From: a phage
Assembly: GCA_020773975.1 (NCBI GenBank)
Contig: GCA_020773975.1_3638.1
Length of the DNA stretch: 64,000 nucleotides
Reading direction: 5' to 3' (one strand)
Part shown: positions 421 to 45,050 of the stretch, piece after piece
How the letters are laid out: every line of letters begins with the position of its first letter
Position numbering within the stretch: the first letter of the stretch is position 1
Made by a program: the position numbers and the translations under genes
The notes under the pieces: model-generated
Database searches by the model: none
The model's input: the letters and a program-made list of their open reading frames with translations, nothing else
What the model was told of the DNA's origin: nothing

Positions 421-496
421 GGGAGTGTAGATCAGTTAGTAGATCGCTCGACCGATAATCGAGAGGACGTAGGGGCAGAGCCTACCACTCCCACCA
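421..496 (+). tRNA. tRNA-like, anticodon GAT (Ile) with atypical C33 and non-canonical T-loop
   Basis: Hand fold: acceptor GGGAGTG/CACTCCC, D-stem GATC/GATC, anticodon stem CTCGA/TCGAG loop CCGATAA, T-stem GTAGG/CCTAC but T-loop GGCAGAG, encoded CCA. Confidence 0.4.
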
Positions 497-501
497 AATA
501 T

Positions 502-576
502 GCATCCATAGTTTAATTGGGAAAACTACAGCCTTCCAAGCTGAAGTCGAGGGTTCGATACCCTCTGGATGCTCCA
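502..576 (+). tRNA. tRNA-Gly (anticodon TCC)
   Basis: Hand fold: acceptor GCATCCA/TGGATGC, anticodon arm CAGCCTTCCAAGCTGA as in bacterial tRNA-Gly(UCC), T-loop GGTTCGATACC, encoded CCA. Confidence 0.75.
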
Positions 577-687
577 GTTAAAAGATGTCAATGAAATCCG
601 CTTGGGTCAACTGAAGACCGTAACAAATTCCATGGTGTTGTGTTTGCGGTCCAACACCAGACATCTTCTATCTATGTACAGGCTTGA

Positions 688-1251
688 GTGCGTATGAGAT
701 ACTTGAAATATTTATCGTGGATTCTGTTAGCACCTCTTGACCCAATTATGTCGGTTCTATGTGTTATTCTGGCTCCTTTTGTTGTTCCGTTCTATAATGA
801 GAAGACAGGGCATCTACCTTATATTTTCAGGTGGATGGAAACATATGATAATCCTATAGATGGTGACAGAGGACACATAGAGAGATGGGAAGAAGTCCGT
901 AAAATAGGAAGTTTTGGTGTTTACCTACAACGAGTTGCTTGGTTGTGGAGAAATAAAGCCTACAATTTTTCCTATCACGTACTTGGACGTGAAATCACAT
1001 CTGTGACAAAGTGGAAAGGAAACATCCATGTAAGCTCTGATGTGGAGGATAATCAACAAGGCTATTTGTTGATGTGGAATGACAATGCGTGGGGTGTATT
1101 CGCGTTTGTCCCGTCTTTTAGATTGTTTGGAAAACAATTTTACTGGCGAATTTATGTCGGTTGGAAACTGAAGAGTGTGGTTCCTGAAGACAGAGCTTTT
1201 TCAAGAGAGAGAGTGATGTTGGCATTTTTCATAAGTCCTTTCCGAAAATAG
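688..1251 (+). CDS. hypothetical Trp-rich protein with hydrophobic N-terminus (187 aa)
   Basis: ORF track; embedded in the tRNA array; N-terminal hydrophobic stretch; no recognisable catalytic motif. Confidence 0.4.
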   Translation: MRMRYLKYLSWILLAPLDPIMSVLCVILAPFVVPFYNEKTGHLPYIFRWMETYDNPIDGDRGHIERWEEVRKIGSFGVYLQRVAWLWRNKAYNFSYHVLGREITSVTKWKGNIHVSSDVEDNQQGYLLMWNDNAWGVFAFVPSFRLFGKQFYWRIYVGWKLKSVVPEDRAFSRERVMLAFFISPFRK

Positions 1252-1257
1252 TTTTTA

Positions 1258-1337
1258 ATGAGAGTAGCGTAACTTCACTGGGTGAAGGCTGGCCTCCAAA
1301 ACCAGTGACTAAGAGGTTCGATTCCTCACTCTCGTGC
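1258..1337 (+). tRNA. tRNA-Trp (anticodon CCA), atypical D-arm, CCA not encoded
   Basis: Hand fold: acceptor ATGAGAG/CTCTCGT, anticodon loop CTCCAAA matching bacterial tRNA-Trp, T-loop TTCGATT; D region is long and forms a CTTCAC/GTGAAG hairpin. Confidence 0.5.
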
Positions 1338-1340
1338 AAA

Positions 1341-1416
1341 AGGGGATTAGCATAGTGGCCTAATGCAACGGGCTTTGACCCCGTGATCGGTTGTTCGAAT
1401 CAACCATCCCCTGCCA
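1341..1416 (+). tRNA. tRNA-Gln (anticodon TTG)
   Basis: Hand fold: acceptor AGGGGAT/ATCCCCT, anticodon stem ACGGG/CCCGT loop CTTTGAC, T-arm GGTTGTTCGAATCAACC, encoded CCA. Confidence 0.7.
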
Positions 1417-1425
1417 AGTTAAAAC

Positions 1426-1515
1426 GGAGAAGCAAATCGATTGGCGACGAAAACACATTGGAAATGTGCTGACTGGTAAAACGGATTGAGAGTTCGATTC
1501 TCTCCTTCTCCGCCA
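1426..1515 (+). tRNA. tRNA-Ser (anticodon GGA), class II
   Basis: Hand fold: acceptor GGAGAAG/CTTCTCC, anticodon loop TTGGAAA, long variable arm, T-arm GAGAG-TTCGATT-CTCTC, G73, encoded CCA. Confidence 0.6.
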
Positions 1516-1536
1516 GTTTTTAATTACTAAGGTATT

Positions 1537-1630
1537 GGAAGATTAACCCTAATTTGGTAAGGGGTCTCCCTGCTGAGGAGATAGTAACCCAGAAATGGGT
1601 GTGACAGTTCGATTCTGTCAGCCTCCTCCA
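1537..1630 (+). tRNA. tRNA-Ser-like (anticodon GCT), class II, acceptor stem imperfect
   Basis: Hand fold: anticodon stem TCTCC/GGAGA loop CTGCTGA, long variable arm, T-arm GACAG-TTCGATT-CTGTC plus CCA; 5' acceptor pairs with two mismatches, so 5' boundary uncertain. Confidence 0.4.
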
Positions 1631-1857
1631 AGTTATCTTTAATGTAGCTTGTTATTCTTACTTTAGCAGAGTAAATCTTCGGCAAGTGGCGGTAACCACT
1701 TTACCGATACCCCAGAGCAGTCCGCTCTTTACTGGCGTAAGTCAAACACTCATGATGGTCATGTAATCGTAATCTATCATTAGTGTGCCCTCCCTAGAGG
1801 GCTGTTGCGTATAGCTAATTATGTGCGAGTAATTAGCTATTTTAAAGATAATTTAAA

Positions 1858-1934
1858 GGATCTGTAGCCAAATGGTTTAAGGCACTCGACTTTTAATCGA
1901 GGGATTGTTAGTTCGAATCTAACCAGATCCACCA
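1858..1934 (+). tRNA. tRNA-Lys (anticodon TTT)
   Basis: Hand fold: acceptor GGATCTG/CAGATCC, anticodon stem CTCGA/TCGAG loop CTTTTAA, T-loop GTTCGAATC, encoded CCA. Confidence 0.75.
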
Positions 1935-1943
1935 AAATATTCT

Positions 1944-2034
1944 GGTTCTTTGACCGAGTGGTCGATGGTGACGGCCTGTTAAGCCGTTGGGAGGAATCTC
2001 CCCACCGAAGGTTCGAATCCTTCAGGAACCGCCA
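1944..2034 (+). tRNA. class II tRNA (Ser/Tyr-like body, long variable arm, G73) with anticodon GTT
   Basis: Hand fold: acceptor GGTTCTT/AGGAACC, Ser-like D-arm ACCGAGTGGTCGATGGT, perfect anticodon stem ACGGC/GCCGT with loop CTGTTAA, variable hairpin GGGAGG..CTCCC, T-arm GAAGGTTCGAATCCTTC, encoded CCA. Confidence 0.55.
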
Positions 2035-2120
2035 ATTCTTGACTTAATCAAGTCACAGATATCACCTAGCCAGCGATACCAGTTAGTAGATTCTGGGACA
2101 ATTAAAATCTACATCTCTCT

Positions 2121-2198
2121 CTGTCCGTAGCGCAGCTTGGGTAGCGCGGGTCACTTGGGATGATCAGGTCGTTGGTTCAAATCCAACCGGACAGACCA
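2121..2198 (+). tRNA. tRNA-Pro (anticodon TGG)
   Basis: Hand fold: acceptor CTGTCCG/CGGACAG, D-arm GCGCAGCTTGGGTAGCGC, anticodon loop CTTGGGA, T-arm GTTGG-TTCAAAT-CCAAC, encoded CCA. Confidence 0.7.
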
Positions 2199-2240
2199 AC
2201 AAACATATACATATCAAAGCAGAAATGTACAGAGGATACC

Positions 2241-2432
2241 ATGTTAACAGTTAAAGTCGTATCTCCAAATGATGAACAAATTTTTTGTGGCAAAATTGTT
2301 GGGTATTGTGCTCATCAAAAGTCTATAGCTATTTCAGGTATTGACCAAAAAGTGTTTTTGTCTGAGGATCAGACAGCTTATGTTATCAATGCCAATGGGA
2401 AAACTATTTCTGTGTATCGTGGAAAACCATAA
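2241..2432 (+). CDS. hypothetical small protein (about 63 aa)
   Basis: ORF track 2160..2432 trimmed to the internal ATG (MLTVKVVSPN) so it no longer overlaps tRNA-Pro. Confidence 0.35.
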   Translation: MLTVKVVSPNDEQIFCGKIVGYCAHQKSIAISGIDQKVFLSEDQTAYVINANGKTISVYRGKP

Positions 2433-2446
2433 CTGTTGATATAAAT

Positions 2447-2523
2447 GGGCGATTGATGGAATTGGTATACATGTCAGGCTTAGAACCTGAATTTTGGGGG
2501 TTCGAGTCCCTCATCGCCTACCA
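2447..2523 (+). tRNA. class I tRNA with anticodon TAG (would read CUA/Leu) and A73
   Basis: Hand fold: acceptor GGGCGAT/ATCGCCT, anticodon stem TCAGG/CCTGA loop CTTAGAA, short variable loop, T-arm GGGGGTTCGAGTCCCTC, encoded CCA. Confidence 0.5.
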
Positions 2524-2528
2524 ATCAT

Positions 2529-2604
2529 GTGACGGTAACTCAGTTGGTAGAGTGCCTTGCTGAAGACTAGGTGGTCACAGGTTCGAACCCTGTCCGTCAC
2601 ACCA
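2529..2604 (+). tRNA. tRNA-Phe (anticodon GAA)
   Basis: Hand fold: acceptor GTGACGG/CCGTCAC, D-arm CTCAGTTGGTAGAG, anticodon loop CTGAAGA, T-arm CACAGGTTCGAACCCTGT, encoded CCA. Confidence 0.65.
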
Positions 2605-2610
2605 AATTAT

Positions 2611-2689
2611 TGCAGAGTGGTGGAAATGGATTTACCATGTTAGGTTCATACCCTGAAGATTGCAGGTTCGACTCCTGCCTCTGCATCCA
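2611..2689 (+). tRNA. tRNA-Met (anticodon CAT; Met or lysidine-Ile)
   Basis: Hand fold: acceptor TGCAGAG/CTCTGCA, anticodon stem TTAGG/CCTGA loop TTCATAC, T-arm GCAGG-TTCGACT-CCTGC, encoded CCA. Confidence 0.6.
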
Positions 2690-3172: not shown

Positions 3173-3298
3173 TAAAGTGGACACTAAGGAAGGTCGTGGC
3201 TGAGTAAACGGTAAGACACTCTCGACATGTAAAGGTTCCTTCGCCACTTTTCTCAAATAACTATAATAATAATCCAATCAATCTCCTCTCCTATGCCT

Positions 3299-3324
3299 AA
3301 CCCCGCCTCTTGCGGGGTTTTTCT
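3299..3324 (+). terminator. rho-independent terminator
   Basis: CCCCGC-CTCTT-GCGGGG hairpin followed by TTTTT. Confidence 0.6.
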
Positions 3325-3373
3325 TTATGTGCTAGTCTTTACGCATCTTGTTTTGTACTCAAGGATAGCTAAG

Positions 3374-4711
3374 ATGTTGCATGTTTTCAAAAAAGAAGAT
3401 TTTCAAAGAGAGTACGACATTTTGTGCTCTTTTATACCAAAAGGTGTTTATGATTTATTGTCGAAGCTGGATGTTAAGATAGCTGGCGGTGCAATAACCT
3501 CTTTGTTCTCTAATAGTAAAGTCAACGATCTTGATTTGTATTTCCCATCTTGGGAAAGCCTTGAGATATTCATTGCGTACATGATGGATAAAAATCTCTT
3601 AGGTGGAAAGTATGATTTAGCCGCACAGACAAACGGATGGGGAAATCAAAAAAGAACTTTTAGGTATTTTTATAACCTTGATAATGGGCAGGGTTCTCAT
3701 TTAGGTTTCACAGATCCTTTGTCAAGATGTAAAAATCTTCATTTTGAAGATGAAGATCTTCCAAACCTTACCAGAGTTGGTGTAACCGATAAGAGTGTGA
3801 TGCTGTACTTTGGGAAAGACCCTGTATTACAGTGTGTTGCTGTGGATGTGTTCAAAACAACAGAAGATATCTTTAGCAAAGTTGATTTTACAATCAACAT
3901 GGGCGCTTTTAACTTCAAGGATGGTGTGTGGGAATTTGATAGCAATTTCTTAAAACATATTGCTCAAAGGGTTTTAGTTGTAAATCATAAGACTGAATAC
4001 CCGATTATATCACTTTTGAGATCTGAAAAATATAAATCTCGTGGTTATACAATTTCGAAAAAAGAGACAATGAAACTGGCTATGACCATTGCTAGCCTTC
4101 AGATACAAAGTTGGGAATCGGCAAAGTCACATCTTAGCGGGATGTACGGAATGAAACTGTCTGATATCTTTGATGAGACAAAGCCGTTTTCACTTGATTT
4201 TTTGGTTGAGTGTCTAGACAGATTAGAATCTGGTTGCCAGCAGATAGACAAAAATGTTACCCCTGTGCAACCGTTGCCGTTTAATGATGTGTCCCAAGTT
4301 AATATGTTCAGTATTTTCCAAAGATTAAGAAAAGCAACAGGCAGGAAATACTTTACAAAACTATATGGGGTTTGTCCTGCTGAAGTTTTCTATCTTATGA
4401 TGCCAACAAAAGATACACATTATGTTGGGCTTCACAAAGAAGATATAGCAAATAATTTTCCAACTCTCAGACTTTATGTTGATGAAACGGAGGCAAGAGG
4501 AGAGTACAAAATTCTGTGTGAGAACGGAGAGATAGATGGCTATGGGTTTACAATATATCGGCCAGGTGCAGTTCTGTTAAAGGTTTCTGTAAGCGATACG
4601 TCAAAGATCCAATACGATATAGGTTATTTTAATGATTTGTGTATTTCTGAAAACAGAAAAACAACACTGAAAATTGAAAACATTATTGAGTGTGATGGGG
4701 ATATATCATGA
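3374..4711 (+). CDS. putative tRNA nucleotidyltransferase-like (CCA-adding/poly(A) polymerase family) protein
   Basis: ORF trimmed to ATG after AAGGA RBS; head motif KIAGGAITSLF...NDLDLYF aligns with GGAVRD...DxD, and SKVDFTINMGAF aligns with RRDxTINA at matching spacing. Confidence 0.5.
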   Translation: MLHVFKKEDFQREYDILCSFIPKGVYDLLSKLDVKIAGGAITSLFSNSKVNDLDLYFPSWESLEIFIAYMMDKNLLGGKYDLAAQTNGWGNQKRTFRYFYNLDNGQGSHLGFTDPLSRCKNLHFEDEDLPNLTRVGVTDKSVMLYFGKDPVLQCVAVDVFKTTEDIFSKVDFTINMGAFNFKDGVWEFDSNFLKHIAQRVLVVNHKTEYPIISLLRSEKYKSRGYTISKKETMKLAMTIASLQIQSWESAKSHLSGMYGMKLSDIFDETKPFSLDFLVECLDRLESGCQQIDKNVTPVQPLPFNDVSQVNMFSIFQRLRKATGRKYFTKLYGVCPAEVFYLMMPTKDTHYVGLHKEDIANNFPTLRLYVDETEARGEYKILCENGEIDGYGFTIYRPGAVLLKVSVSDTSKIQYDIGYFNDLCISENRKTTLKIENIIECDGDIS

Positions 4712-5109
4712 TATGGTTTAAAACGCTGTTAACTTTCTTTTCTAAGAACATAAAACAGATAGGTGTTGTTTTGTGTTGTGTGATGCTCGTTTGGGGTGTT
4801 GTGGAGATAAAGCATTGGTATAATGACCAGTTAACATCGTCATACAACGCAGGTGTCAGCGACACTGATCTTAAATGGGAGAGGATTAACCAGCAAGTTC
4901 GGGATCATAATAACGCTTTTAAAAAACAACAGCAGGATAAGATCGATGAGTTGTCAACCATGTTGGTGAAAGAGAGAGAAATTAATAACCAACTGAAAGA
5001 AGACCTTGATAAAAAGGTTAAAAGTTATAGCAAAACACAAGCAGGAAAACAGGTTTGCCTAGATAACCAGTTTGTTGATATTTATAACGATAGTCTGGGG
5101 GTGAAATGA
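4708..5109 (+). CDS. putative i-spanin (Rz-like)
   Basis: N-terminal TM helix followed by charged coiled-coil-like periplasmic domain; overlaps next gene start. Confidence 0.5.
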   Translation: MIWFKTLLTFFSKNIKQIGVVLCCVMLVWGVVEIKHWYNDQLTSSYNAGVSDTDLKWERINQQVRDHNNAFKKQQQDKIDELSTMLVKEREINNQLKEDLDKKVKSYSKTQAGKQVCLDNQFVDIYNDSLGVK

Positions 5110-5399
5110 AAAAGTGTGTCATCATGGTTCCTTTTCTATTATTGATGTTAATAGGGTGCACTTCACCACCTGAGAGAGTTGTTCCTGTTGCAAAAGAGAT
5201 CATAATAAGCGATATCTTAGCAAGACCACCCGCTGAGGCTATGATACCACCGAAAGAACCTGAAAAATTGCCAGGTGGTCTTAGTAATGCAGATGCTATC
5301 GAGGTGATTAAGAAAAACAACATTAAGGCTGCTGAAGATCGTATGAGATTAAGAACGTTACAGCAGTATGTGAAGACAATATTTTCTTCAGATAAGTAG
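5106..5399 (+). CDS. putative o-spanin (Rz1-like), proline-rich signal-peptide protein
   Basis: Signal peptide ending LIGC then Pro-rich mature region; immediately follows the i-spanin candidate. Confidence 0.45.
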   Translation: MKKCVIMVPFLLLMLIGCTSPPERVVPVAKEIIISDILARPPAEAMIPPKEPEKLPGGLSNADAIEVIKKNNIKAAEDRMRLRTLQQYVKTIFSSDK

Positions 5400-5407
5400 T
5401 TGACAAT

Positions 5408-5440
5408 GCCCTTATTTAATGATAAGGGCTTTATTTTTAT
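5408..5440 (+). terminator. rho-independent terminator
   Basis: GCCCTTAT...ATAAGGGC hairpin followed by T-run. Confidence 0.55.
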
Positions 5441-5494
5441 CGTTATTCGTGGTAAACTACCTTCTATGGTAGGAATAGAAAATATGGAGGTCTT

Positions 5495-6841
5495 TTGAGT
5501 AAAGTATTTGGACCTGCCAGTCCTAAACAAAAAATGATTTTGGAGAGTAAAGCCCAAATTCTAATAATTGGCGGGGCCGCCGGGTGTTTGTCTAAAGACC
5601 ACGAGGTGTTGACACCATCTGGCTGGATTAAGATATCAGAATGGTCAGGGCAGGACATTCTGCAATATGATAAAGCCACTGGGGAGGCTAAATTTATCCC
5701 TCCTTTAGAGTTTGTTAAACTCCCTTGCGACAAACTTACAAGAATAGAAGGTAATGGCATTTGTCAAGAGCTATCTGACGAACATACTGTGATTTATAAA
5801 CCAGACTATAAATCACAGCCAAGAACACTTTCTTTTTCTGAAGTGGCAGAAAGACATAACAACTCTGTTAAAAAAGGTTGGACAGGTAAGTTCATAACTA
5901 CATTTAACTATGATGGGCCTGGGATAGACATGACAGAAGGGGAATTAAGGCTTCAGGTTGCTGTCATGGCTGATGGGAGAGTTGTTAAAGAAGGGAAAGA
6001 TAATTATACACAGATGCGCTTTGCTAAAAAGCGTAAATATGACCGCTTAATCGAACTTTGTAAAAAGTTTGGATTAAGATATGAAGACAGAGGATCAAAA
6101 CCCAGTGAAAGATATACCACTGGGGAACAGTACGAGGTCATTGTATGGCCTAAATATCCTGATAAAAAATTTACAGAGAAATACTATCAGTGTTCAAATG
6201 AACAACTGGAGATAATACTTGATGAGATTTTTCATTGGGATGGTTCTTTTTGTAAGCCATATGGCGGTAAAACACATAACAGCTTTACAGGTAGATATTT
6301 TACTGCTCATAAGACGAACGCTGATTTTATTCAGTTTGTAGGATCTTCTCTTGGTTATAATACCACCATAAGCCATGACACAAGAAGTGGAAAGGACAGT
6401 TATACTGTTAATATTATGGCTAGAGGAAAAGGATTAAGGTCACTGGCTAATAAAGACAGAAAAGCTGAGTTTAAAGCGTTTACACCTACGGATGGGTTTA
6501 AATACTGCTTTGTAACACAAACAGGTTTCTTTGTTACCAGACTGGAAGATTGTGTGGTTGTCACTGGGAATAGTGGAAAATCATATCTCCTACAATTGAT
6601 GCCGCTTGCTTATGTCGATGACCCGCAGACAGCATGTATAATGTTTCGTAGGACAACACCTCAATTGACAGGTGCAGGTGGACTTTTTGATACAGCGAAA
6701 AGTATTTATTTGCAACTCGATAAGGAATGGAAGCCGAAGTTCAGGGAGAAAGCTCTGGAAGCAATTTTCCCATCTGGGGCAAAGGTGTTGTGGAGACACA
6801 TGGAGTATGAGAATAACAAATTAGATCATCAGGGTGAATAG
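5495..6841 (+). CDS. terL: terminase large subunit, N-terminal coding segment (P-loop ATPase) containing an in-frame intein
   Basis: TTG start after GGAGG RBS; Walker A split as IIGGAAG-[intein]-SGKSY; lies directly upstream of portal; ORF runs to a stop inside intron-like sequence, real exon end probably 6817-6829. Confidence 0.7.
   Translation: MSKVFGPASPKQKMILESKAQILIIGGAAGCLSKDHEVLTPSGWIKISEWSGQDILQYDKATGEAKFIPPLEFVKLPCDKLTRIEGNGICQELSDEHTVIYKPDYKSQPRTLSFSEVAERHNNSVKKGWTGKFITTFNYDGPGIDMTEGELRLQVAVMADGRVVKEGKDNYTQMRFAKKRKYDRLIELCKKFGLRYEDRGSKPSERYTTGEQYEVIVWPKYPDKKFTEKYYQCSNEQLEIILDEIFHWDGSFCKPYGGKTHNSFTGRYFTAHKTNADFIQFVGSSLGYNTTISHDTRSGKDSYTVNIMARGKGLRSLANKDRKAEFKAFTPTDGFKYCFVTQTGFFVTRLEDCVVVTGNSGKSYLLQLMPLAYVDDPQTACIMFRRTTPQLTGAGGLFDTAKSIYLQLDKEWKPKFREKALEAIFPSGAKVLWRHMEYENNKLDHQGE
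5585..6571 (+). mobile_element. intein (329 aa) with LAGLIDADG-type endonuclease motifs in the terminase P-loop
   Basis: Starts with Cys (CLSKDHEVLTPSGW), ends VVVTGN followed by Ser; internal LQVAVMADG and LDEIFHWDG motifs; removal restores GGAAGSGKS. Confidence 0.7.
6809..6817 (+). repeat. 9-bp direct repeat GAGAATAAC (copy 1) flanking the terminase intervening region
   Basis: Identical 9-mer at 8778-8786; joining the copies puts exon 1 and the C-terminal segment in frame (MEYENN-PDYLAF). Confidence 0.5.
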
Positions 6842-7537
6842 CTTGCCCTTCGTGCCTATAACGGTGGAACTCCCTATGGGAAAATACCGTGCCACAGAAT
6901 ATGGAAATATAAACTCTGGGTGTAACGACTATCTCCGATGAGTGTAGGAGAGTAGAATCACAAGCGATTGGTGATCCAAACGGCACGCCAAGGATGGAAG
7001 ATATAGTCTGTTCCACATGGAAACATGTGGCGGGTGTTTTAGCACACCGCCTCAGTGTAGCGAACTGAGGGGACAATAAGTTGCAATATACCTTTATAGG
7101 TTTCGATGAGGGTAGAACAGTGTGCTCTCTATAAACCCCTTTAATTGACGGGTAACTCTTTATACATATCACCACTAAGTAGGTATGGTAACATATTTAT
7201 GGTCAACGGTAATGACGTTGAGTATAGTAACAGTGTGAATGTTTAGACAATCCGCAGCGAAGCATCCCTACGGGATGAACGTTCAACGACTATCGCTTAC
7301 GGGCGTTAGGGCCAAGCGGTGAGGGAAACCTCCGGTTGATTATCAACCGCCGAAACAGGGGGGTGTGTAATAACACACAAGATATAGTCTGATCTGCATG
7401 GTGACATGCAGCAGCACGTAGTGGTGCGGGATAAGAGTAGCGATCTTATCTGAACAAAAACGACACAATTCACATGGTCACAGATAGATTATCTGATATC
7501 TCGTCTACGTTCAAACTCTAAATATCCGAGCAGGATG
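6830..7537 (+). mobile_element. group I intron-like intervening sequence(s) in terminase, no ORF
   Basis: Conserved core elements: P-like AATTGACGGG (7143), Q AATCCGCAGC (7250), R GTTCAACGACTATC (7282), S AAGATATAGTCTGATC (7379); a second R/S-like pair at about 6926 and 7003. Confidence 0.55.
7381..7430 (+). repeat. 50-nt intron core block (S element to P9 region), copy 1
   Basis: GATATAGTCTGATCTGCATGGTGACATGCAGCAGCACGTAGTGGTGCGGG; second copy at 8674-8723 with 2 mismatches. Confidence 0.7.
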
Positions 7538-7773
7538 GTTATCTCTTGTAACCCTGATCCAGATCATAAGATCAAGGAGTTGATTTCTTGGTATTTAGAT
7601 GATGAGGGATATCCTATACCTGAACGCGATGGGGTGATTAGATGGTTTATAAGACGTGACGGGGAGTTTATCTGGGGTGAATCAGAGCAAGAATTAATTG
7701 AAAAGTATTGGGATGGCAAGGATGAGAAAAGAAAGCCTAAACCACTTTCATTTTCCTTCATTTCCGCAACCAT
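7538..7773 (+). CDS. possible internal terminase exon (or co-converted exon fragment), about 79 codons
   Basis: Open frame between intron-like regions (VISCNPDPDHKIKELISWYLDDEG...FISAT); LISWYLDDE resembles a Walker B strand; begins right after an intron-terminal ATG and ends at CCAT before a GTGG guide-like sequence; frame relation to downstream segment unresolved. Confidence 0.3.
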
Positions 7774-7902
7774 TAAAAGAATAGTGGCTTCATGCAGTAA
7801 TGCATGTCGAATAACTTCGTTAATTGCTGGGAAACCCTTTGTATAAGGGCAATCAGCAGCTATAATTACTTTTCCGAAACTGTAGTAGGGAGAATGTTTG
7901 AG

Positions 7903-8589
7903 ATGAAAAATTTAGGATTTTTAGGGTATTCCCATTATTGTGCGACGTATGATGGAAGAATTTATAGTTTGTATTCCCACAAATTTTTACATCCTAATGT
8001 CCATAAGAAAACTGGCTATGCAATGTTAACGTTGTGTGAGGATGGTAAAAAGTTTCAAGTTCTTGTCCATAGGGTTATTGCTTTTGCTTTTGTCGAGAAT
8101 GATAGCCCTGATACAAAAACTCAAGTGAACCATTTAGATGGAAACAAACTTAATAACGCAGCGTGGAATCTTGAGTGGACAACTGCAAAGGAAAACACAC
8201 ATCACGCACATGAAATAGGGCTTAAGAAGTCTTATGTAAACAGTTACAGGCCTCTTGATGATAACACTGCCCTTGAGATATGCAGATTACTTGAGCAGGG
8301 TGCTAGAGTAAAGGATATCAGTGAGATGTTTGGTATTGGGCAGACTGTGGTTAGTAGTATCAAAGCTGGGAGAGTCTACCCAGACATTTCTAAAGAGTTT
8401 AATTTCAGGATGGTTCCTTCTTCCAACAGAATTAGTGAATCCAAAGTTATAGGGATATGTGAAGATCTGAGAGACGGTATCCTAAGCATTAATAAGATAT
8501 CTAAAAAATGGGGTGTTAGTTTTAATCTTGTTAGAAGAATAAAAGATAGAAAAACTTACATCTATATCTCAAACAACTATGAATGGTAA
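7903..8589 (+). CDS. intron-encoded HNH homing endonuclease
   Basis: ATG 9 nt after GGGAGA (alternative ATG at 7894); N-terminal GYSHY..YDGRIYS NUMOD-like motif, HNH signature VNHLDGNKLNN...NLEW...ENTHHAH, C-terminal helix-turn-helix-like repeats. Confidence 0.65.
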   Translation: MKNLGFLGYSHYCATYDGRIYSLYSHKFLHPNVHKKTGYAMLTLCEDGKKFQVLVHRVIAFAFVENDSPDTKTQVNHLDGNKLNNAAWNLEWTTAKENTHHAHEIGLKKSYVNSYRPLDDNTALEICRLLEQGARVKDISEMFGIGQTVVSSIKAGRVYPDISKEFNFRMVPSSNRISESKVIGICEDLRDGILSINKISKKWGVSFNLVRRIKDRKTYIYISNNYEW

Positions 8590-8673
8590 TGTAGTTCAAC
8601 GACTATCCCGCAAGGGAGTAGATCGCAAGCTAATGGCGTTCGAAAAGCGAAGCACCCATTATGTGTGGGTGGT

Positions 8674-8723
8674 GATATAGTCTACTCTGCATGGTGACAT
8701 GCAGCAGCACGTAGTGGTGCGGG
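8674..8723 (+). repeat. 50-nt intron core block, copy 2
   Basis: GATATAGTCTACTCTGCATGGTGACATGCAGCAGCACGTAGTGGTGCGGG; near-identical to 7381-7430. Confidence 0.7.
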
Positions 8724-8771
8724 GGTTGGCGTTGCGTCCAACCTTGAATACAAGGATTCGATAATCCTCCC

Positions 8772-9557
8772 ATGCTGGAGAATAACCCAGATTATCTAGC
8801 ATTCCTTGAAGGTCTTCCAGAGGTAGAAAAAGCCCAGTTGTTGCATGGGAACTGGAACGCAAGACCTGAAGGGGCAAACTATTTCCAGAGATCTTATTTA
8901 AAAGAGGTTCCCTGCTTACCTCTCGGTGTTGTATCTGTTCGCCCGTATGATAAAGCAGGTACAGAAAGAACATCTGGAAACAGATATCCTGACTTTACAG
9001 CATCTGTTAAGGTAAGTAAAGACAATGATGGCTTTTACTACTTGTCTGGTGATTATTGTCCTGAATTTTTTGATGATGGTAGATATTCGACTCAAACGCA
9101 GGGAAGATTCTGTAAAAAAGCTGGGGAACGTGATGTTATCATTAAGAAACAGGCTTATTTTGATGGTGATGATGTCACTATAATTTTCAGTGTTGACCCA
9201 GGACAAGCAGGAATAAGTGAATTTTTAACAAGCTCTCGTGAACTAATAGCGGAAGGGTTTACAGTAGAAAAAGATCCTACACCAAGCAATAAATCAAAAT
9301 TAACACGATTCACACCGTTTGCAAAACTTGCTCAAGCAGGTATGGTGAGAATAGTTCGTGATAGTTTTGATCCTAAAACTTATGAAGCCCTTATGACAGA
9401 GCTTGAAAAGTTCAATGGGGAAAGGAGTACGACGACAAGAAAAGACGATTGGGTCGACGCCATTTCTTCTGGGATAAATTATCTTGAAAAAGAAGAAATA
9501 GTCAAACCTGTTGTTATTCCAAAAATTGTAGCTCCTACCTTGTATAAAAGAATATAA
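8772..9557 (+). CDS. terL: terminase large subunit, C-terminal coding segment (nuclease domain)
   Basis: ORF track; VTIIFSVDPGQAG and DDWVDAISSG resemble terminase nuclease acidic motifs; in frame with exon 1 across the GAGAATAAC repeats; real 5' boundary probably 8775-8790. Confidence 0.6.
   Translation: MLENNPDYLAFLEGLPEVEKAQLLHGNWNARPEGANYFQRSYLKEVPCLPLGVVSVRPYDKAGTERTSGNRYPDFTASVKVSKDNDGFYYLSGDYCPEFFDDGRYSTQTQGRFCKKAGERDVIIKKQAYFDGDDVTIIFSVDPGQAGISEFLTSSRELIAEGFTVEKDPTPSNKSKLTRFTPFAKLAQAGMVRIVRDSFDPKTYEALMTELEKFNGERSTTTRKDDWVDAISSGINYLEKEEIVKPVVIPKIVAPTLYKRI
8778..8786 (+). repeat. 9-bp direct repeat GAGAATAAC (copy 2)
   Basis: Identical to 6809-6817; see copy 1. Confidence 0.5.
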
Positions 9558-9572
9558 CAGAGGGGATAATTC

Positions 9573-11114
9573 GTGTCAACAAGATTTGCACAACAAGAAG
9601 AGATTTCTAAAGCAGGTAATGAGAGACTTGCTGTTAGTCGTCTTCGCACCGGAGAGTTAGGCTCTGGTGCTCTTTCTCAACTTAGGGCTGAATCAGAGAT
9701 TATGAAAGTTAAGGAGTTGAGATGGCCTAATTTCATCGCCACTGTTGAAGCCATGAAGCAAGACCATACAGTTTCCACAGCCCTTGATACAAAGTATGTC
9801 TTTGTAACTAAAGCATTCAATGATTTTAAAATCTTGTATAACAGAGATAGCAGAAAATCTAAGAAAGCTGCTGAGTTTGTGGAGTATGCGCTGAAGAATC
9901 TTGCTAACCAACAAACTCTACGTGACATAGCCCGAAGCGCAGCAACGTTCAATGAGTATGGGTTTTCGATATTTGAAAAAGTTTATCGTACTGAGCCAGA
10001 GACTTCAAGGTATGCTGGGTATATTACGATTGATAAAATTGCATTCAGGCCACAGTGCAGTCTTTCTAGATCAAAGCCTTGGGTATTTGATGCCGATGGT
10101 AAGACGCTGAAGGGCATTAACCAAAGCAGTTTGGCTTTCTCCAATTTACAAAACGGAATGCTGGGGGATACTTTAAACATTATCCGTAAATTGACTAATG
10201 GTGATGATGTTTTTATTCCAGTTAATAAGTTGATGATAATGAGTTTGGGGGGTACGGAATCCAACCCTGCTGGGTTATCACCTTTGGTTGGTTGTTATAG
10301 GGCATTCCGAGAGAAGATCCTTATAGAAAATTTGGAGACTATCGGAGCATCTAAAGATCTTGGTGGTATCATAGAACTTAAGATACCCTCCCAGATCCTT
10401 AATAAAGCAGCAATAGACCCAACATCACCAGAAGCTGCTATGGTGCAAGGACTAATGGCAGATGCTGCAAACGCACACGCTGGGGAACAAGCCTATTTTA
10501 TCTTACCATCTGACCTCAATAATCAAGGTGGTAAACAATATGAAATGTCCCTTAAAGGGATCGATGGCGCAGGTAAACAATACAGCACACAAGAGCTTGT
10601 TAACTCTCGCAAGAAGGCTATTCTTGATCGTTTTGGTGCGGGGTTTATTAACTTAGGTAACGATGGGCAAGGATCTTATAATCTTTCAGAATCAAAACAA
10701 ACTATTCATGGTCATTTTGTCCAGAGAGATATTGATATTATTGTTGAGGCGTTCAATAAGAACTTAATACCTCAACTTCTTGCTTTGAACGATATAAGAT
10801 TGTCTGACGAAGATATGCCAAGACTGAAACCTGGGCTTATTCAAGAAGTCGATATGGAAGGCTTCTCTAAATTTGTTCAGCGTATTGGTGCTGTTGGGTA
10901 TTTGCCTAAAACACCTACAGTTATTAATAAAATTCTTGAGGTTGGTGGCTTTGACGAAGAAATCCCTGAAGATATGGAGCTTGATGAATTGTTGCAAATT
11001 CTTGGTCAGGATGTAAGCCGTTCTGGAGATGGTATGACACCAGGATCAACAGGTAACGGAACATCAAAAATATCTACTGTCAGGGATAATTCTGTTTCTA
11101 ATTTAGAGAATTAA
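9573..11114 (+). CDS. putative portal protein (513 aa)
   Basis: GTG start after GAGGGGA; size and position immediately downstream of terminase; acidic C-terminal tail. Confidence 0.5.
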   Translation: MSTRFAQQEEISKAGNERLAVSRLRTGELGSGALSQLRAESEIMKVKELRWPNFIATVEAMKQDHTVSTALDTKYVFVTKAFNDFKILYNRDSRKSKKAAEFVEYALKNLANQQTLRDIARSAATFNEYGFSIFEKVYRTEPETSRYAGYITIDKIAFRPQCSLSRSKPWVFDADGKTLKGINQSSLAFSNLQNGMLGDTLNIIRKLTNGDDVFIPVNKLMIMSLGGTESNPAGLSPLVGCYRAFREKILIENLETIGASKDLGGIIELKIPSQILNKAAIDPTSPEAAMVQGLMADAANAHAGEQAYFILPSDLNNQGGKQYEMSLKGIDGAGKQYSTQELVNSRKKAILDRFGAGFINLGNDGQGSYNLSESKQTIHGHFVQRDIDIIVEAFNKNLIPQLLALNDIRLSDEDMPRLKPGLIQEVDMEGFSKFVQRIGAVGYLPKTPTVINKILEVGGFDEEIPEDMELDELLQILGQDVSRSGDGMTPGSTGNGTSKISTVRDNSVSNLEN

Positions 11115-29270: not shown

Positions 29271-30764
29271 GTGGCTGCTCAATTTGGATTAAATGACTAC
29301 GGTTTTTCAATTCCGTCCCTTGATGACTTGATAACAGACACTAAGCAATCCCTTATTAGAGCTTTTGGTGAAAACTTTAACACCCAAACTAACTCTGTTG
29401 TTGATAAGATCACTACTATTTTCAACGAAAGGGAATATCAATTAATTCTTTTGGCTGCATCTATTTATGCAGCACAAACGCTAGCAGGGGCAGAAGGTAT
29501 ATATCTTGACGAGATTCTTGGTCGTCGTGGCATATTCCGTAGAGGAAAAGCCAAAGGGTCCGGTACTGTTCAAATGGTAATTAATAACACAGTGCCGTAT
29601 AACATGATTTATGATACCGCAACATACAGTATTGACGGTGGAAATTTTGTGTTAACAGAAGATACCGCCGTTGCTGGCAATATCATAGCGCAGCAAATAA
29701 CCAATCAAGATTGGGTTCTTGGTAACTACACCATCCAGATAGTTAACCAGAATGATGAGACAACAAAGACACTGAACCTATCTCTGAAAAACAAAACTCC
29801 AAACAGTACCGAATTAAACTCTTTTATGATGGCTATGAAAAAGTTTATAGTCGATAATACAACTTATCTGAACGAAGATAAGATCTTTATCGAATCTTCT
29901 TCAGGAAGTATGTTTATAGGTTATGATCAAAATAAGAAAATGATTGGTCTTAATGCTCCTGTGGACTTTAGAACATCACCCCTACTTGGTCAAAGAACAA
30001 TAACCATGGATGTTATTGCTGTTGAAGCAGGAGAAATATCTAGAGAAGCAGAGACAGTTACTAACATAAGCCCGACACCAAGTGGTTTTGTTAGCTTGAC
30101 GAACAGGGAAGCATTTAGTGATGGTACAGATGTTGAGACGGATACAGAATATAAGCTGAGGGCTTCGAACACCACATCAGCGGGCGCTGCCGCAACACGA
30201 CCTGCTATTGTTTCTGCTGTTTTAAATGTGCCTGGTGTAAGTAAGGTTAAAATTTTCTCCAACAATACTGGTGTGACAAACGAGTACGGTGTTCCAGCGT
30301 ATAAGTTTGAGACAGTAGTCCATGGTGGGGCCACAGAAGATATCAGTAAGGCACTTTATAATACTATAGCACTCTCTAATGCTACTTATGGTGATGTATT
30401 CTATGATGTGACTACAGAAGATGACCAAGTAGAAAGAATTTATCATAGCAAGGCAAAAGTAAGGCAACTTGAAATTCGTGTCAGATATAAAGGTAAATTA
30501 CTATCCCTTACAGAACAGAACACGATCAGGGATTCCCTTAAAGCTGTTGTTGATCCTCTTAACATTGCAGATACGTTGTACAATATCCAACTTGTTTCTG
30601 CTGTGGGGTCATCCATCTCATCAGGCAGATTTACTCAACTTTTAGTAGATGTCAAAAACAAAGGTGAGCCAGACAGTACGTACACTAATGATGATATTGT
30701 TGCTACTATGACAGAAGTTTTCGCTGTAGAGTTAAATGACATAACTTTCCAGCAAGTTCTTTAA
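29271..30764 (+). CDS. putative baseplate J-like protein (497 aa)
   Basis: GTG start after GAGGAGG; size and position typical of gpJ/gp6-like wedge subunit. Confidence 0.45.
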   Translation: MAAQFGLNDYGFSIPSLDDLITDTKQSLIRAFGENFNTQTNSVVDKITTIFNEREYQLILLAASIYAAQTLAGAEGIYLDEILGRRGIFRRGKAKGSGTVQMVINNTVPYNMIYDTATYSIDGGNFVLTEDTAVAGNIIAQQITNQDWVLGNYTIQIVNQNDETTKTLNLSLKNKTPNSTELNSFMMAMKKFIVDNTTYLNEDKIFIESSSGSMFIGYDQNKKMIGLNAPVDFRTSPLLGQRTITMDVIAVEAGEISREAETVTNISPTPSGFVSLTNREAFSDGTDVETDTEYKLRASNTTSAGAAATRPAIVSAVLNVPGVSKVKIFSNNTGVTNEYGVPAYKFETVVHGGATEDISKALYNTIALSNATYGDVFYDVTTEDDQVERIYHSKAKVRQLEIRVRYKGKLLSLTEQNTIRDSLKAVVDPLNIADTLYNIQLVSAVGSSISSGRFTQLLVDVKNKGEPDSTYTNDDIVATMTEVFAVELNDITFQQVL

Positions 30765-30774
30765 GGATGTTATT

Positions 30775-31452
30775 ATGGCAGACTATTTAAAAGATGTAAA
30801 TCATATACACACACTGCCAGATTTCGTTGAGGGAGGTATTGATTATCTCCCTGGTGATTTTCTGAAAGAGAAAAAGAATCTTGTAAAATTTCTGACAATA
30901 TACCTTGAAAGATTGAAAGCTATTGATGAGATGCTTGTAAAGCTATCAGAAGGTAGATTATTAAGGAATGCCGCAGGGCTGAATCTTGATGAGATAGGTA
31001 ATCAGGTTGGTATTGAGAGAAACGGGCTTGATGATGCCACCTATAGGGCAATAATAATGATCTTGGCTGCTGGATCTGCAAGACACGGTACAAGACCAGA
31101 GTTTATTGAAACATTAGATCAACTGTTTGGTGTTGGAAATTTTACAACTTACAAAGGGGATAATTACCGTTTTGACGTAAACGTATCGAAAAGCTGTTTC
31201 GACTTAGCAGCAGCGATAGATGAGATACTTGACCTATTACCGTTACCAACTCACCTTAGACTAACAGAGTCTGTGGGTTTGGCGTTTGGTTTTAAGAATG
31301 ACAAACATGCACTTGGATTAGGATCTGTGGCAGAGAAATCAAGAACTGGGGATGGTGGTTTAGCCCATCTAGTTTACGTACCGGATCCACCAAGAACATC
31401 GGATGACATCCTTATTTATGTTGACAATATTTCTGTAGATGCAACAGAGTAG
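30775..31452 (+). CDS. putative baseplate/tail-fibre-associated protein (225 aa)
   Basis: Synteny (gpI-like position after the J-like gene). Confidence 0.35.
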   Translation: MADYLKDVNHIHTLPDFVEGGIDYLPGDFLKEKKNLVKFLTIYLERLKAIDEMLVKLSEGRLLRNAAGLNLDEIGNQVGIERNGLDDATYRAIIMILAAGSARHGTRPEFIETLDQLFGVGNFTTYKGDNYRFDVNVSKSCFDLAAAIDEILDLLPLPTHLRLTESVGLAFGFKNDKHALGLGSVAEKSRTGDGGLAHLVYVPDPPRTSDDILIYVDNISVDATE

Positions 31453-31464
31453 AGGAGACCACAT

Positions 31465-33528
31465 ATGGCAGAGGCTATTTTCACAGCCAGAAGAGAAGAT
31501 GACTCTGTAGCTGTCAGCTTTGACTATGAAACAATATCAAACACAGCTATTGCTGGAAGAGATTATACACCCAAAGTAGGTACGGCAACAATTCCTAAAG
31601 GGGAAAAGTCTGTACAGATACCTGTGAAGATAAAACAACATCCTAAAAACTCATTACCAAGAGAATTTACCTTAAAAATGAGTAATCCGTCTTTTGGTGC
31701 AAGGCTAGACAGGCTGGCTTCCAGATGTGTTATTAGCACCAAGGAGGATATGTCTGAGTTGGGGTGGGGAACAAAAGAAGAGAAAATGTTTCTACCTAAA
31801 TATTGGACAATTGATTCTCAACCCACAGAAAGTTGCTCTATAATATCTAATGGTAATATACTTACAGCTTATATGACTAATAGAACTGTAAGCGGTTTAG
31901 CAGGGGTTATTTGGAGCACAAAAGATAAGTATGATCATAAAGGGATCTCTTTTCAAGATCACGCAGATCTTCGAAACGCTAAACTGTGGTTCGATATAGA
32001 GTTGGGCGACGGAATGCCTGATTTCAATAATGAGAAATTGACCCCGACATTAACCCTTAAACTTTTAGATGGGGCGACCCATTATATCCCTCTGTACGCT
32101 TATGCTGAAAATATCAGCGAGGATTATAAAAGAGCCACAATCAAACTTGATTTTTCAAATTTAAAATCTGGCCCTGATGTGAACGTGCCAGTGGATACCT
32201 CTCAAGTGGATCAGTTTTTCTTTTCTATGATATCTGAGAAGTATGCAGAAGGAGAAGATGTTGTCCCTAAAGAAAATCAGAACCTTATGTTGAAAATAAC
32301 TCTTAAAAAGCCTGATACAGGCTATACAATGATGAGAGTTAATAATTTGACAATTCCTGCACATGATGTGCGTATGTGTACATCCTATGATGACATGTAT
32401 AACCTGACACCTGAACGAGTGGTGGACAACTGCTTGAAACTTGGGTACAGGGATATGATAAACCACTATAATGGTATGTCGCATTATTACGAGTTCTCTT
32501 GGGAAAGCTCTGCATGGAAACTGAACAAAGATGTCCCTGTCAATAATGCAACTCTACAATGGATGAAAAACTATTTCGCACTGACACAAGCAAATGGTTA
32601 TAAGGTTATCAATTCTATTAGTTTTGAGTTGATGAGTACTGTATGTCCGGCAGAATGGGTGCAGCATGATTGGAATGATGCATTGGCTGAAACAGGATAC
32701 ACACCACCAAGTTGGGTATTATCACCTAATATTAATGAGGGTATGCAATATATCCAAAGTGTGATAAATAAAATAGCAGCCACATGCGAACAAGTTAACC
32801 AGGTTGTTATCATTCAGATAGGGGAGCCTTGGTGGTGGTATAATACTGCTACAAATTTACCTTGTGTCTATGATTATACTACAAAAGTTCGTTTTAATGA
32901 AGAGACTGGATTGTATGCTCAAGACATGGGAACAATTTATGACTTTAAGACCGGAACACCCTATGATGAGTATGTAGATTTTCTAAGACAGTGCTTAGGG
33001 GAGCGAGTGGTAAAATTCGGTGCTGATCTTAAAAAATCTTATCCTAATGCAAAAATAACACTTTTACCGTTTTTACCATCCATTATTGGTAATGGTATTA
33101 TGGAAAAGATAAATTTCCCTAGTGGTAGTTATACACCTGAGAATTTTGATTTTTATTGCTCCGAGTGCTATGACTGGTTACTTCAAGGAAAAATGGAAAA
33201 ATCATTCCAGGCCATCACCATTCCGCGAGATGTCTTAAAATTTAAAGAAGATAAGATACATTATCTGGCAGGATTTGTTCCAGACGAAGGGCTAGCACCA
33301 TTATACGGATTTGACCCTAATTCTAATTATAGAGAATATCTTTGGAAAATGATTATAGGGAACATCGTTCTTAATGAGTTTAAGTTTCCAGGTATTTATC
33401 AATACATATGGGCGTATCCACAAGTAATGCATGATTCTATAACAGTGCACAACTCTCAATCCGCAGTCTTTCATATGGGGCATACAGCATTGAAAGGGTA
33501 TTTAAAAGATACCCCACCAGAAGTTTAA
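31465..33528 (+). CDS. putative tail fibre / receptor-binding protein with N-terminal Calx-beta-like segment (687 aa)
   Basis: N-terminal FTARREDDSVAVSFDYETISNTAIAGRDYTP resembles Calx-beta repeats; large Trp/Tyr-rich C-terminal domain; synteny. Confidence 0.4.
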   Translation: MAEAIFTARREDDSVAVSFDYETISNTAIAGRDYTPKVGTATIPKGEKSVQIPVKIKQHPKNSLPREFTLKMSNPSFGARLDRLASRCVISTKEDMSELGWGTKEEKMFLPKYWTIDSQPTESCSIISNGNILTAYMTNRTVSGLAGVIWSTKDKYDHKGISFQDHADLRNAKLWFDIELGDGMPDFNNEKLTPTLTLKLLDGATHYIPLYAYAENISEDYKRATIKLDFSNLKSGPDVNVPVDTSQVDQFFFSMISEKYAEGEDVVPKENQNLMLKITLKKPDTGYTMMRVNNLTIPAHDVRMCTSYDDMYNLTPERVVDNCLKLGYRDMINHYNGMSHYYEFSWESSAWKLNKDVPVNNATLQWMKNYFALTQANGYKVINSISFELMSTVCPAEWVQHDWNDALAETGYTPPSWVLSPNINEGMQYIQSVINKIAATCEQVNQVVIIQIGEPWWWYNTATNLPCVYDYTTKVRFNEETGLYAQDMGTIYDFKTGTPYDEYVDFLRQCLGERVVKFGADLKKSYPNAKITLLPFLPSIIGNGIMEKINFPSGSYTPENFDFYCSECYDWLLQGKMEKSFQAITIPRDVLKFKEDKIHYLAGFVPDEGLAPLYGFDPNSNYREYLWKMIIGNIVLNEFKFPGIYQYIWAYPQVMHDSITVHNSQSAVFHMGHTALKGYLKDTPPEV

Positions 33529-33543
33529 GAAGGAGATACTTTT

Positions 33544-34638
33544 ATGGCTACACCAAGTATACCAATCGAGATTTGGGCAGCGGGGGATGTAATTCTCCCT
33601 AATACTCACGGGAAGAATAAAATAAGACCTATTGACGACCTTTGGTTAAAAGGTTGGGATATGGGAGAAAAACCAGCTTGTGAAGAATTTAACTATGTTC
33701 TTCATATGATGACAAGTTGGATAAAATATGTTACAGAGGATCAAATTCCTGAATTAGATACAAGATTTTTAAGAAGAAGTGAAAATCTGTCTGATTTAGC
33801 TGACAAGGAAACATCCAGAGTCAACCTTGATGTGTGGAGCAGATCAGAGGCCGACAACCGTTACGTGAATGTAACGGGAGATACAATGACAGGAGCTTTG
33901 TCATTGCCGAGATTGAATTTTCAACCTTCTGAAACAGATACTGCGTATATTACAACTACAAATCCGGCTTCTGACTGGACGTACTGGGATTTTGTTCTTG
34001 GAGATAATCCGGGAATAGCAGGGACAAACGGTGTAGATTCTATACGTTTCCGATTCTCTCCTACAGGTAACTCTGGGATGTTCACTATGATGGAGCTTAA
34101 TGCTATTAGCTCCTCAGCGGCTTTGTGTAAAGTAACAGGAAATGTTGTTGCCACAGGAACTGTACAAGGAACAAATGTTAATGGCACAGATGCAACATTC
34201 ACCACAACAAGAACATCCTTTTTGACGGCTACAGGGCAAATTCAAGGTCAGACTGTTGTAGCAACAAGCTCATTAACAACACCATCTGCAAGAGTTAATG
34301 GAACAGCAAACGTAAATGAGTTAATTGTAAATAATAACTTTGCTACGGTTGCTGGGAGAAATATCGTAAGATCTGTTAATGGTGTAGGTGCGGATGGTAA
34401 CGGCAATGTTAATATCCAAACTGGCGGTGTTCAAGATGTTAGATTAACAGGTAACACATGGTACTGGCCTGGTAGTAACCTAGTATCTTGGAACTGGCAA
34501 GCGCCAGCGGGTGCAGTTATGACAGGTATCTGTCCTCAAGATGTTGGTAAAAACTCAGCAGACAACATTGGTGGGGTTTACTATGCGTATATCCAGAAAC
34601 AAGTAAATGGTGTCTGGCACAACGTAAGTAGAGTTTAA
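33544..34638 (+). CDS. putative tail fibre protein (364 aa)
   Basis: Fibre-type motif NVTGDTMTGALSL; Gly/Thr/Asn-rich beta-repeat region. Confidence 0.5.
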   Translation: MATPSIPIEIWAAGDVILPNTHGKNKIRPIDDLWLKGWDMGEKPACEEFNYVLHMMTSWIKYVTEDQIPELDTRFLRRSENLSDLADKETSRVNLDVWSRSEADNRYVNVTGDTMTGALSLPRLNFQPSETDTAYITTTNPASDWTYWDFVLGDNPGIAGTNGVDSIRFRFSPTGNSGMFTMMELNAISSSAALCKVTGNVVATGTVQGTNVNGTDATFTTTRTSFLTATGQIQGQTVVATSSLTTPSARVNGTANVNELIVNNNFATVAGRNIVRSVNGVGADGNGNVNIQTGGVQDVRLTGNTWYWPGSNLVSWNWQAPAGAVMTGICPQDVGKNSADNIGGVYYAYIQKQVNGVWHNVSRV

Positions 34639-45048: not shown

Positions 45049-45050
45049 AA

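Follow-up and report, generated by a model that had tools for sequence, protein, structure and literature searches.

A large terminase gene in a phage genome, probably interrupted by one intein and three group I introns

How does a phage encode an intact large terminase when the ATPase motif of the gene is split by an insertion and its reading frame breaks further downstream? This question is raised by a stretch of 64,000 nucleotides (nt) of phage DNA (contig GCA_020773975.1_3638.1 of assembly GCA_020773975.1; hereafter the window, meaning the whole stretch analyzed), in which the large terminase (TerL) gene occupies positions 5495-9557 on the (+) strand, a span of 4063 nt. An earlier reading of the letters without database searches (the sequence-only reading) had placed an intein in the Walker A motif, followed by about 2 kb of group I intron-like sequence, and had left the number of exons at two or three. 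Comparison of the reading frames around the ribozyme cores with uninterrupted homologues points instead to a gene interrupted by one intein and three group I introns and thereby divided into four exons, the elements being predicted to splice and to encode active endonucleases; a probability of roughly 0.88 is assigned to this reading. Selfish DNA makes up about 63% of the gene span, which is composed of the following features:

5495-5584 (+): TerL exon 1, N-extein part; TTG start, residues M1-G30, ending in the Walker A residues GGAAG; aligned without gaps to the TerL of Salmonella phage PVP-SE1
5585-6571 (+): intein, 329 amino acids (aa), Cys1...Gly-Asn329 followed by Ser +1, with a predicted LAGLIDADG homing-endonuclease domain
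6572-6835 (+): TerL exon 1, C-extein part; S31-G118, ending in ...CAGGGT
6836-7080 (+): group I intron A, 245 nt, without an open reading frame (ORF), between codons G118 and L119
7081-7113 (+): TerL exon 2, a 33-nt micro-exon, L119-G129 (LQYTFIGFDEG), holding Walker B
7114-7462 (+): group I intron B, 349 nt, without an ORF, between codons G129 and T130, similar to the T4 td intron (IA2-like)
7463-7773 (+): TerL exon 3, from T130 into the I233 codon (first two bases); contains SCNPDP and LISWYLDDE
7774-8755 (+): group I intron C, 982 nt, splitting the I233 codon behind its second base; the P6 region holds an ORF
7903-8589 (+): HNH homing-endonuclease ORF, 228 aa, within intron C; an alternative in-frame ATG lies at 7894
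8756-9557 (+): TerL exon 4, from the last base of the I233 codon through I499 to the TAA stop; nuclease domain (Terminase_6C)

When the exons are joined and the intein is removed, 1500 nt remain, which encode 499 aa without a frameshift or stop and match the uninterrupted 499-aa TerL of PVP-SE1 at 87% identity without a gap, with the 3' site of intron A at 7080. This alignment with uninterrupted terminases is one of the checks that the sequence-only reading had proposed. A 3' site at 7083, with exon 2 beginning QYTF..., was considered and rejected, as it yields 498 aa and a one-residue gap (Leu119) relative to PVP-SE1, and the allele of phage Av-05 also gives 7080. A tblastn search with the processed protein retrieved 1382 phage records, more than 1200 of which cover at least 80% of the query, and single-piece, full-length matches of 86-87% identity are found in Seunavirus phages such as PVP-SE1, SSE121, GAP31, and 4MG. 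Both T4-type domains are present in the processed protein, Pfam Terminase_6N scoring 86 bits over residues 24-280 and Terminase_6C 32.5 bits over residues 366-474. A GGAGG Shine-Dalgarno sequence is located 4 nt upstream of the TTG start at 5495.

The processed protein contains Walker A as GGAAGSGKS (residues 26-34), Walker B as FIGFDE (123-128), and the C-motif as SCNPDP (157-162). Walker B lies inside the 33-nt exon 2, whose product LQYTFIGFDEG is colinear with LQYTFVGFDEG of PVP-SE1. Since a search of the PDB sequences with the spliced TerL returned no match, the Walker B assignment is founded on the motif pattern, on order and spacing, and on conservation. The segment LISWYLDDE (residues 169-177), previously taken for a Walker B strand, comes after the C-motif and is therefore not Walker B. 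The open segment 7538-7773 that contains it was rightly recognized as coding sequence, but it is merely part of exon 3, and this exon is native to the gene rather than donor sequence dragged in by homing.

The sequence-only reading had also noticed the 9-bp repeat GAGAATAAC and had considered a single intron-like block of about 2 kb (6818-8786), bracketed by it, whose removal would fuse MEYENN to PDYLAF and leave the middle segment as a third or donor exon. The 9-mer is indeed present at 6809 and 8778, in frame at both positions, and the resulting fusion is in frame as well, but the repeat stands at chance level, coincides with no junction and brackets no insertion: 94 distinct repeated 9-mers occur in the TerL gene as opposed to about 48 expected from shuffles, an excess which stems from the similarity between introns. 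Furthermore, the fusion would delete about 125 residues (approximately 115-240), Walker B and the C-motif among them, that are 87% conserved in PVP-SE1 and colinear and conserved in every homologue, and sibling phages lack 6836-7080 or 7114-7462 individually while the sequence between them is kept. A single block thus has next to no chance of being correct; the insertion limits are those of introns A, B, and C, and the exons are four (5495-6835 with the intein, 7081-7113, 7463-7773, and 8756-9557).

The boundaries of the introns are given by natural alleles. Escherichia phage 18-1-2, which is 98-99% identical, aligns to 5400-7112 and 7463-9600 with nothing between, so that exactly 7114-7462 (intron B) is missing, while Av-05 aligns up to 6835 and then straight on from 7081, lacking exactly 6836-7080 (intron A). 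Exon 2 accordingly follows directly on exon 1 in Av-05 and runs straight into exon 3 in 18-1-2. All three introns are absent, with the reading frame intact, from PVP-SE1 and about 1200 other TerL genes, and the TerL of rV5 is annotated as a three-piece join of residues 1-129, 130-233, and 234-499, which places its interruptions at the sites of introns B and C. Sites without an element read GATGAGGGA/ACACAA and GGCGGGGCCGCCGGG/AGTGG... (a slash marks the junction here and below). Exon 2 ends in GGT in alleles with intron B (the window, Av-05) and in GGA in alleles without it (18-1-2, PVP-SE1), the latter thus having A instead of U at position -1. Exon 2 of the window and that of 18-1-2 differ at six of 33 positions, every change being synonymous, whereas the next 33 nt in exon 3 are identical. 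This pattern looks like a co-conversion footprint of homing combined with the requirement for a U before the 5' splice site. The GenBank records of 18-1-2 (OK136180.1), 19-1-2, 24-2-1, and TH18 list three separate "terminase large subunit" coding sequences and an HNH gene, with the intein and the introns unmarked.

At the RNA level, the Rfam group I covariance model RF00028 (gathering score 50 bits; partial matches were found with relaxed thresholds) was run over the region, another of the checks suggested beforehand. Where "at least two, possibly three" sets of group I core elements had been counted by eye, three are found. Intron B scores 67.9 bits at 7086-7411, above the gathering score, and intron A 33.9 bits (E 2.5e-6) at 6780-7030. 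Intron C is matched in two halves of 21.4 bits (7764-7971) and 31.6 bits (8513-8704), a low score in place because the ORF splits the ribozyme core; the ORF-less allele in Av-05 reaches 71.2 bits. A repeat search likewise revealed three copies each of a P7 5' strand resembling GTTCAACGACTATC (at 6920, 7281, and 8594) and of the P7 3'/P9 element GATATAGTCT...CATGG..ACATG (at 6998, 7379, and 8672). Each of the three introns is preceded by an exon-terminal U, which can pair with a guide G located 9-11 nt inside the intron, and has a G as its final base. P1 is formed by AGGGU with GCCCU in intron A (3' end ...AAUAAG) and by GAGGGU with GCUCUC in intron B (3' end ...AAAACG), both including the U.G pair, and by CCAU with GUGG in intron C (3' end ...CAAGG). 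For introns B (ACAC with GUGU) and C (AUUC with GAAU), a P10 of 4 bp with the 3' exon is possible. When intron B is folded jointly with its homologues from rV5 and two metagenomic phages, the consensus shows P1, P3, P4, P6, P9, and P9.2, and in this four-sequence family 24 of 75 pairs are changed on both sides with pairing kept; as only near-identical copies of intron A exist for comparison, the covariation result covers the intron B family. The minimum-energy structure of intron A shows P1, P4-P6, P7.1, and P9-P9.2.

In intron C, the HNH ORF sits between the P6 region and P7. It scores 30.7 bits with Pfam HNH_3 (cut-off 24.8), shows weak helix-turn-helix matches, and is 82% identical to rV5 gp066, so that the identification of an intron-borne HNH endonuclease at 7903-8589 by the sequence-only reading holds.

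Two observations concern the relatedness of these introns to one another. A direct repeat of 50 nt (96% identical) joins 7381-7430 to 8674-8723, the P7'/P9/P9.1 regions of introns B and C, which flank exon 3. Recombination between the two copies would delete exon 3, and the repeat probably breaks short-read assemblies. The Av-05 record (NC_025830.1) is linearized inside TerL, a piece of TerL is assigned to the other strand in its annotation, and the block between the two repeats of about 50 nt is inverted and without the HNH ORF, which is probably an assembly artefact arising from the repeated intron cores. Because of this inverted block, Av-05 was used solely for the empty site of intron A and the ORF-less core of intron C. 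The second observation is a further group I intron in the window, at 47184-47501 (-), 318 nt long (RF00028 81.2 bits; boundaries inferred solely from the reading frames and the U/...G/ rule). It lies in a family-A-like DNA polymerase gene, between ...VIYYH and DEIQVQ..., at a site resembling polymerase motif C. This intron can be aligned with the ORF-free parts of intron C, and its P1-P2 region is near-identical to the 5' end of intron C.

Could the TerL segments instead be left unspliced and work as separate polypeptides? The ORF from the TTG at 5495 ends at the stop 6839-6841, in line with the broken frame noted by the sequence-only reading, and unspliced read-through would stop at 6839, 7132, and 7844, within 4, 19, and 71 nt of splice sites, which speaks for splicing. 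A precedent for assembly from separate polypeptides is the NrdA gene of phage Aeh1, split by mobE (as cited in PMC7344957), and such an arrangement would agree with the three separate coding sequences in the sibling records and with the sub-threshold RF00028 score of intron A. Yet exon 2 encodes the catalytic Walker B in 33 nt with neither a start codon nor a ribosome-binding site, and exon 3, as delimited by homology, begins at T130, where no start codon is present. Every exon boundary falls exactly at an in-frame U/...G/ group I junction, and the ribozyme cores are intact and covary. Separate polypeptides for one or more of the insertions are for these reasons very unlikely.

The insertion in the P-loop is equally sharp. 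Relative to PVP-SE1 and rV5, exactly 987 nt (5585-6571) are inserted in frame between G30 and S31 of GGAAG/SGKS, as the sequence-only reading had it. The residues for protein splicing are present as Cys1, Asn329, and Ser+1, and homologues share the termini GC(V or L)... and ...TGN/(S or C)GK. There are 23 homologues in the database and 226 phage records by tblastn, and they sit at the equivalent P-loop position of unrelated proteins, including TerL, PhoH-like, DnaB/KaiC-like, primase-helicase, Snf2-like, RtcB, and RecD-like proteins. An AlphaFold model built on homologues reached a predicted local distance difference test score of 90.9 and a predicted template modeling score of 0.90. In a Foldseek search it matched TliVMA (3e-14), PI-SceI (about 1e-11), PI-PfuI (2e-10), and PhoVMA, with E values from 3e-14 to 1e-10 overall, and its middle domain matched I-DmoI (about 1e-5). 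According to this model the insert is a Hint fold with an inserted homing-endonuclease domain, and both LAGLIDADG-type helices end in a conserved Asp (VAVMADG, FHWDG). The best match among PDB sequences is the AceL NrdHF intein, which is marginal (E 0.089). In view of this match, the block F Cys (YCF), and the block G Thr, a class 3 intein was considered and rejected, because the WCT triplet (Kelley et al., 2016; PMC5050341) is incomplete: position 12 of block B is Val or Ile and not Trp, and position 1 is a conserved Cys. The family nevertheless keeps two of the three WCT residues (the block F Cys and the Thr at position 5 of block G) in addition to Cys1. In Av-05 the intein is 88 codons shorter, as expected for a decaying homing domain.

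Several points weigh against an interpretation as one intein and three introns. The intein has no match in Pfam (up to E=0.01) or NCBIfam (up to E=10), and since both scans were empty, it was identified by the context of its homologues and by structure prediction. Its penultimate residue is Gly instead of the usual His, and in block B (SDEH) a Ser replaces the Thr of TxxH, with the His kept. A penultimate Gly does not exclude activity, as it has been documented in splicing-competent phage class 1 inteins (PMC5050341). Introns A and B carry no endonuclease of their own, and the Av-05 record, which serves as the ORF-less intron C allele, looks misassembled in the TerL region. Finally, intron A lies under the Rfam gathering score, and no convincing P10 pairing was found for it. 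Together with its distance of only 33 nt from intron B, this would fit a degenerate group I remnant which needs a protein cofactor or intron B itself, through joint excision or obligate ordered splicing. All core helices of intron A (P1, P3-P9.2, P7.1/7.2) can nonetheless be drawn, and its fold has a z-score of -3.2 relative to shuffles. In the phage collection, intron A occurs only in four sibling phages, all cultured and all without intron B, and must therefore be removable independently of it. Taken on its own, a degenerate intron A is unlikely.

The gene could also be a pseudogene in decay, or the product of a faulty assembly from a defective phage or metagenomic chimera, and in favor of this stand the inverted, probably misassembled segment of the Av-05 record and a Logan contig (L010) that breaks inside intron B. 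In the phage collection, no single record spans the full 4.2 kb (5400-9600). All exons of the window are nevertheless intact and in frame, without a frameshift or stop in 1500 nt, and apart from intron B their order is colinear with four independent isolate genomes, Escherichia phages 18-1-2, 19-1-2, 24-2-1, and vB_EcoM_TH18, which match 93% of the length of 5400-9600 at 98.6% identity. An independent Logan contig from SRR30025518 contains the intein, intron A, exon 2, and the start of intron B in the same arrangement at 98.7% identity, so that the layout is not unique to the window. Decay or misassembly is accordingly regarded as highly improbable, and the gene as an intact one interrupted by four elements. 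These elements are independent of each other. The analysis documents their boundaries, the colinearity of the processed product, the RNA and protein folds, and the presence/absence polymorphism.

Related layouts occur in more distant sequences. In a distant phage (L009; 77.7-kb contig from ENA ERZ26167708, positions 7351-8606) with a TerL of about 55% identity, an intein occupies the same site, and an HNH-bearing intron after Leu119 is followed by a micro-exon of about 24 nt (QYTMIGVD) and a second group I intron (91.4 bits). The insertion points of this "Walker-B micro-exon" layout are shifted by one to two codons relative to the window. An rV5-like contig (L007) contains the intein and intron B only. 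The stretch around Walker B is therefore a recurrent homing target.

How the gene might be expressed can be proposed as follows. The primary transcript would lose introns A (6836-7080), B (7114-7462), and C (7774-8755) by guanosine-initiated self-splicing, the four exons being joined at the predicted junctions CAGGGU/UUGCAA, GAGGGU/ACACAA, and AACCAU/AUUCGA. The spliced mRNA would encode a precursor of 828 aa, from which the class-1-type intein (Cys1...Asn329, Ser+1) would excise itself and religate Walker A (GGAAG-SGKS), giving a 499-aa TerL of about 57 kDa. The LAGLIDADG domain of the intein and the HNH enzyme of intron C would be homing endonucleases, through which their elements are copied into unoccupied alleles when two phages infect one cell. 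Introns A and B, which have no ORF, have probably spread through co-conversion or by means of a nuclease provided in trans. We infer that the four splicing reactions take place and that the endonucleases are functional. It is also conceivable, though a long shot, that exon 2 serves regulation: its skipping (exon 1 to exon 3) would remove 11 in-frame codons and give an ATPase-dead TerL, so that the intron pair together with the P-loop intein could gate or tune the packaging motor. The group I ribozymes of Twort orf142 reportedly carry out exon skipping. If such regulation exists, the recurrence of the micro-exon in the distant phage would reflect selection, beyond a homing hot spot alone.

The wider sequence assigns the source to the rV5-like Escherichia coli phages of the genus Avunavirus, myoviruses of the Vequintavirinae; over 30000-50000 of the window, Av-05 is 96.5% identical. 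The gene order runs from a tRNA cluster through Rz-like spanin genes (4708-5399) and TerL (5495-9557) to a Mu-type portal gene (9573-11114). Ten tRNA genes are clustered at 421-2686 (+), ahead of the genes for lysis and packaging, an arrangement shared with rV5. A 472-aa ORF at 3293-4711 (+), upstream of the spanin genes, had no match in the Pfam scan; a gene upstream of the spanins in the Logan contig L010 (3880-5217) has a precomputed Pfam match to PF26128 (Gad2), the two being paired by position only. Minus-strand ORFs at 5018-5557, 6741-7175, and 8659-8973 were treated as spurious owing to their overlap with conserved TerL exons or intron A RNA and their odd composition.

The locus leaves the knowledge of how introns or inteins work unchanged, as the mechanism would be conventional RNA and protein self-splicing and homing. 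Its value lies elsewhere. It provides a correct four-exon model for a TerL that sibling records split into three unrelated coding sequences, in which Walker B is lost in the intron-B allele, and it exposes a widespread family of phage P-loop inteins missed by current Pfam and NCBIfam models. Furthermore, phages that are 96-99% identical differ in the length of the intein and in the presence of intron A, of intron B, and of the HNH ORF and form a natural homing series convenient for homing crosses.

Among known systems, the closest is rV5 itself, in which TerL is a three-piece gene, ORF64ABC, with the HNH ORF 65 (Kropinski et al., 2013; PMC3606486). It belongs to the same subfamily, its introns occupy the sites of B (behind G129) and C (inside the I233 codon), the first of them scoring 84.9 bits with RF00028, and its HNH protein is the 82% identical homologue named above; unlike the gene described here, it has three exons rather than four, with no intein, no intron A, and no micro-exon. 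In Pectobacterium phage CB7, also of the Vequintavirinae, TerL is interrupted beside Walker B (D127/E128) by a group I intron with an HNH ORF, whose splicing has been demonstrated by reverse transcription PCR (PMC7344957), an experimental proof for TerL introns of this kind. In contrast to the present gene, this is a single ORF-bearing intron, two codons upstream of the intron B site, and the CB7 TerL has no intein, although an intein and an intron share one gene in CB7 NrdA (PMC7344957).

Several group I (IA-like) introns within one essential phage gene are likewise known from the Bastillevirinae, Bacillus phages with two or three group I introns in TerL and DNA polymerase genes and up to three in TerL (PMC11878797), and from Twort, for which three introns in orf142 are cited there (Landthaler and Shub, 1999, cited in PMC11878797). 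Their phage lineage and insertion sites are unrelated to those seen here, and no intein is reported in the same gene. The td intron of T4 offers a parallel for a single element. Over its last 80 nt (P7' to P9.2), intron B shares about 84% identity with the td introns of T4-like phages, and P7.1/P7.2-type extra helices are present, whereas the host gene, the 5' half, and the P5 extension differ and intron B is without an I-TevI-type ORF. The td intron belongs to subgroup IA2.

For the intein, the counterparts are the TerL P-loop inteins of mycobacteriophages (Kelley et al., 2016; PMC5050341), which also lie inside Walker A and contain a LAGLIDADG-type homing domain, with a penultimate Gly being known in phage class 1 inteins. 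They are inserted at or next to Lys/Thr of terminase_1-type proteins, whereas the present intein lies three residues upstream (G/SGKS) in a Terminase_6-type TerL and belongs to a family undetected by the Pfam and NCBIfam models.

Denser stacks exist in bacteria, such as the ribonucleotide reductase gene of Trichodesmium with several inteins and group II introns. A description of all four elements in one TerL, or of a 33-nt exon holding Walker B, was not found. The sequence-only reading was right to call the stack of selfish elements unusually dense, and the intein with introns A, B, and C is an extreme case of a known phenomenon, TerL introns having been published for LL-H and rV5 (PMC3606486) and TerL P-loop inteins for the mycobacteriophages.

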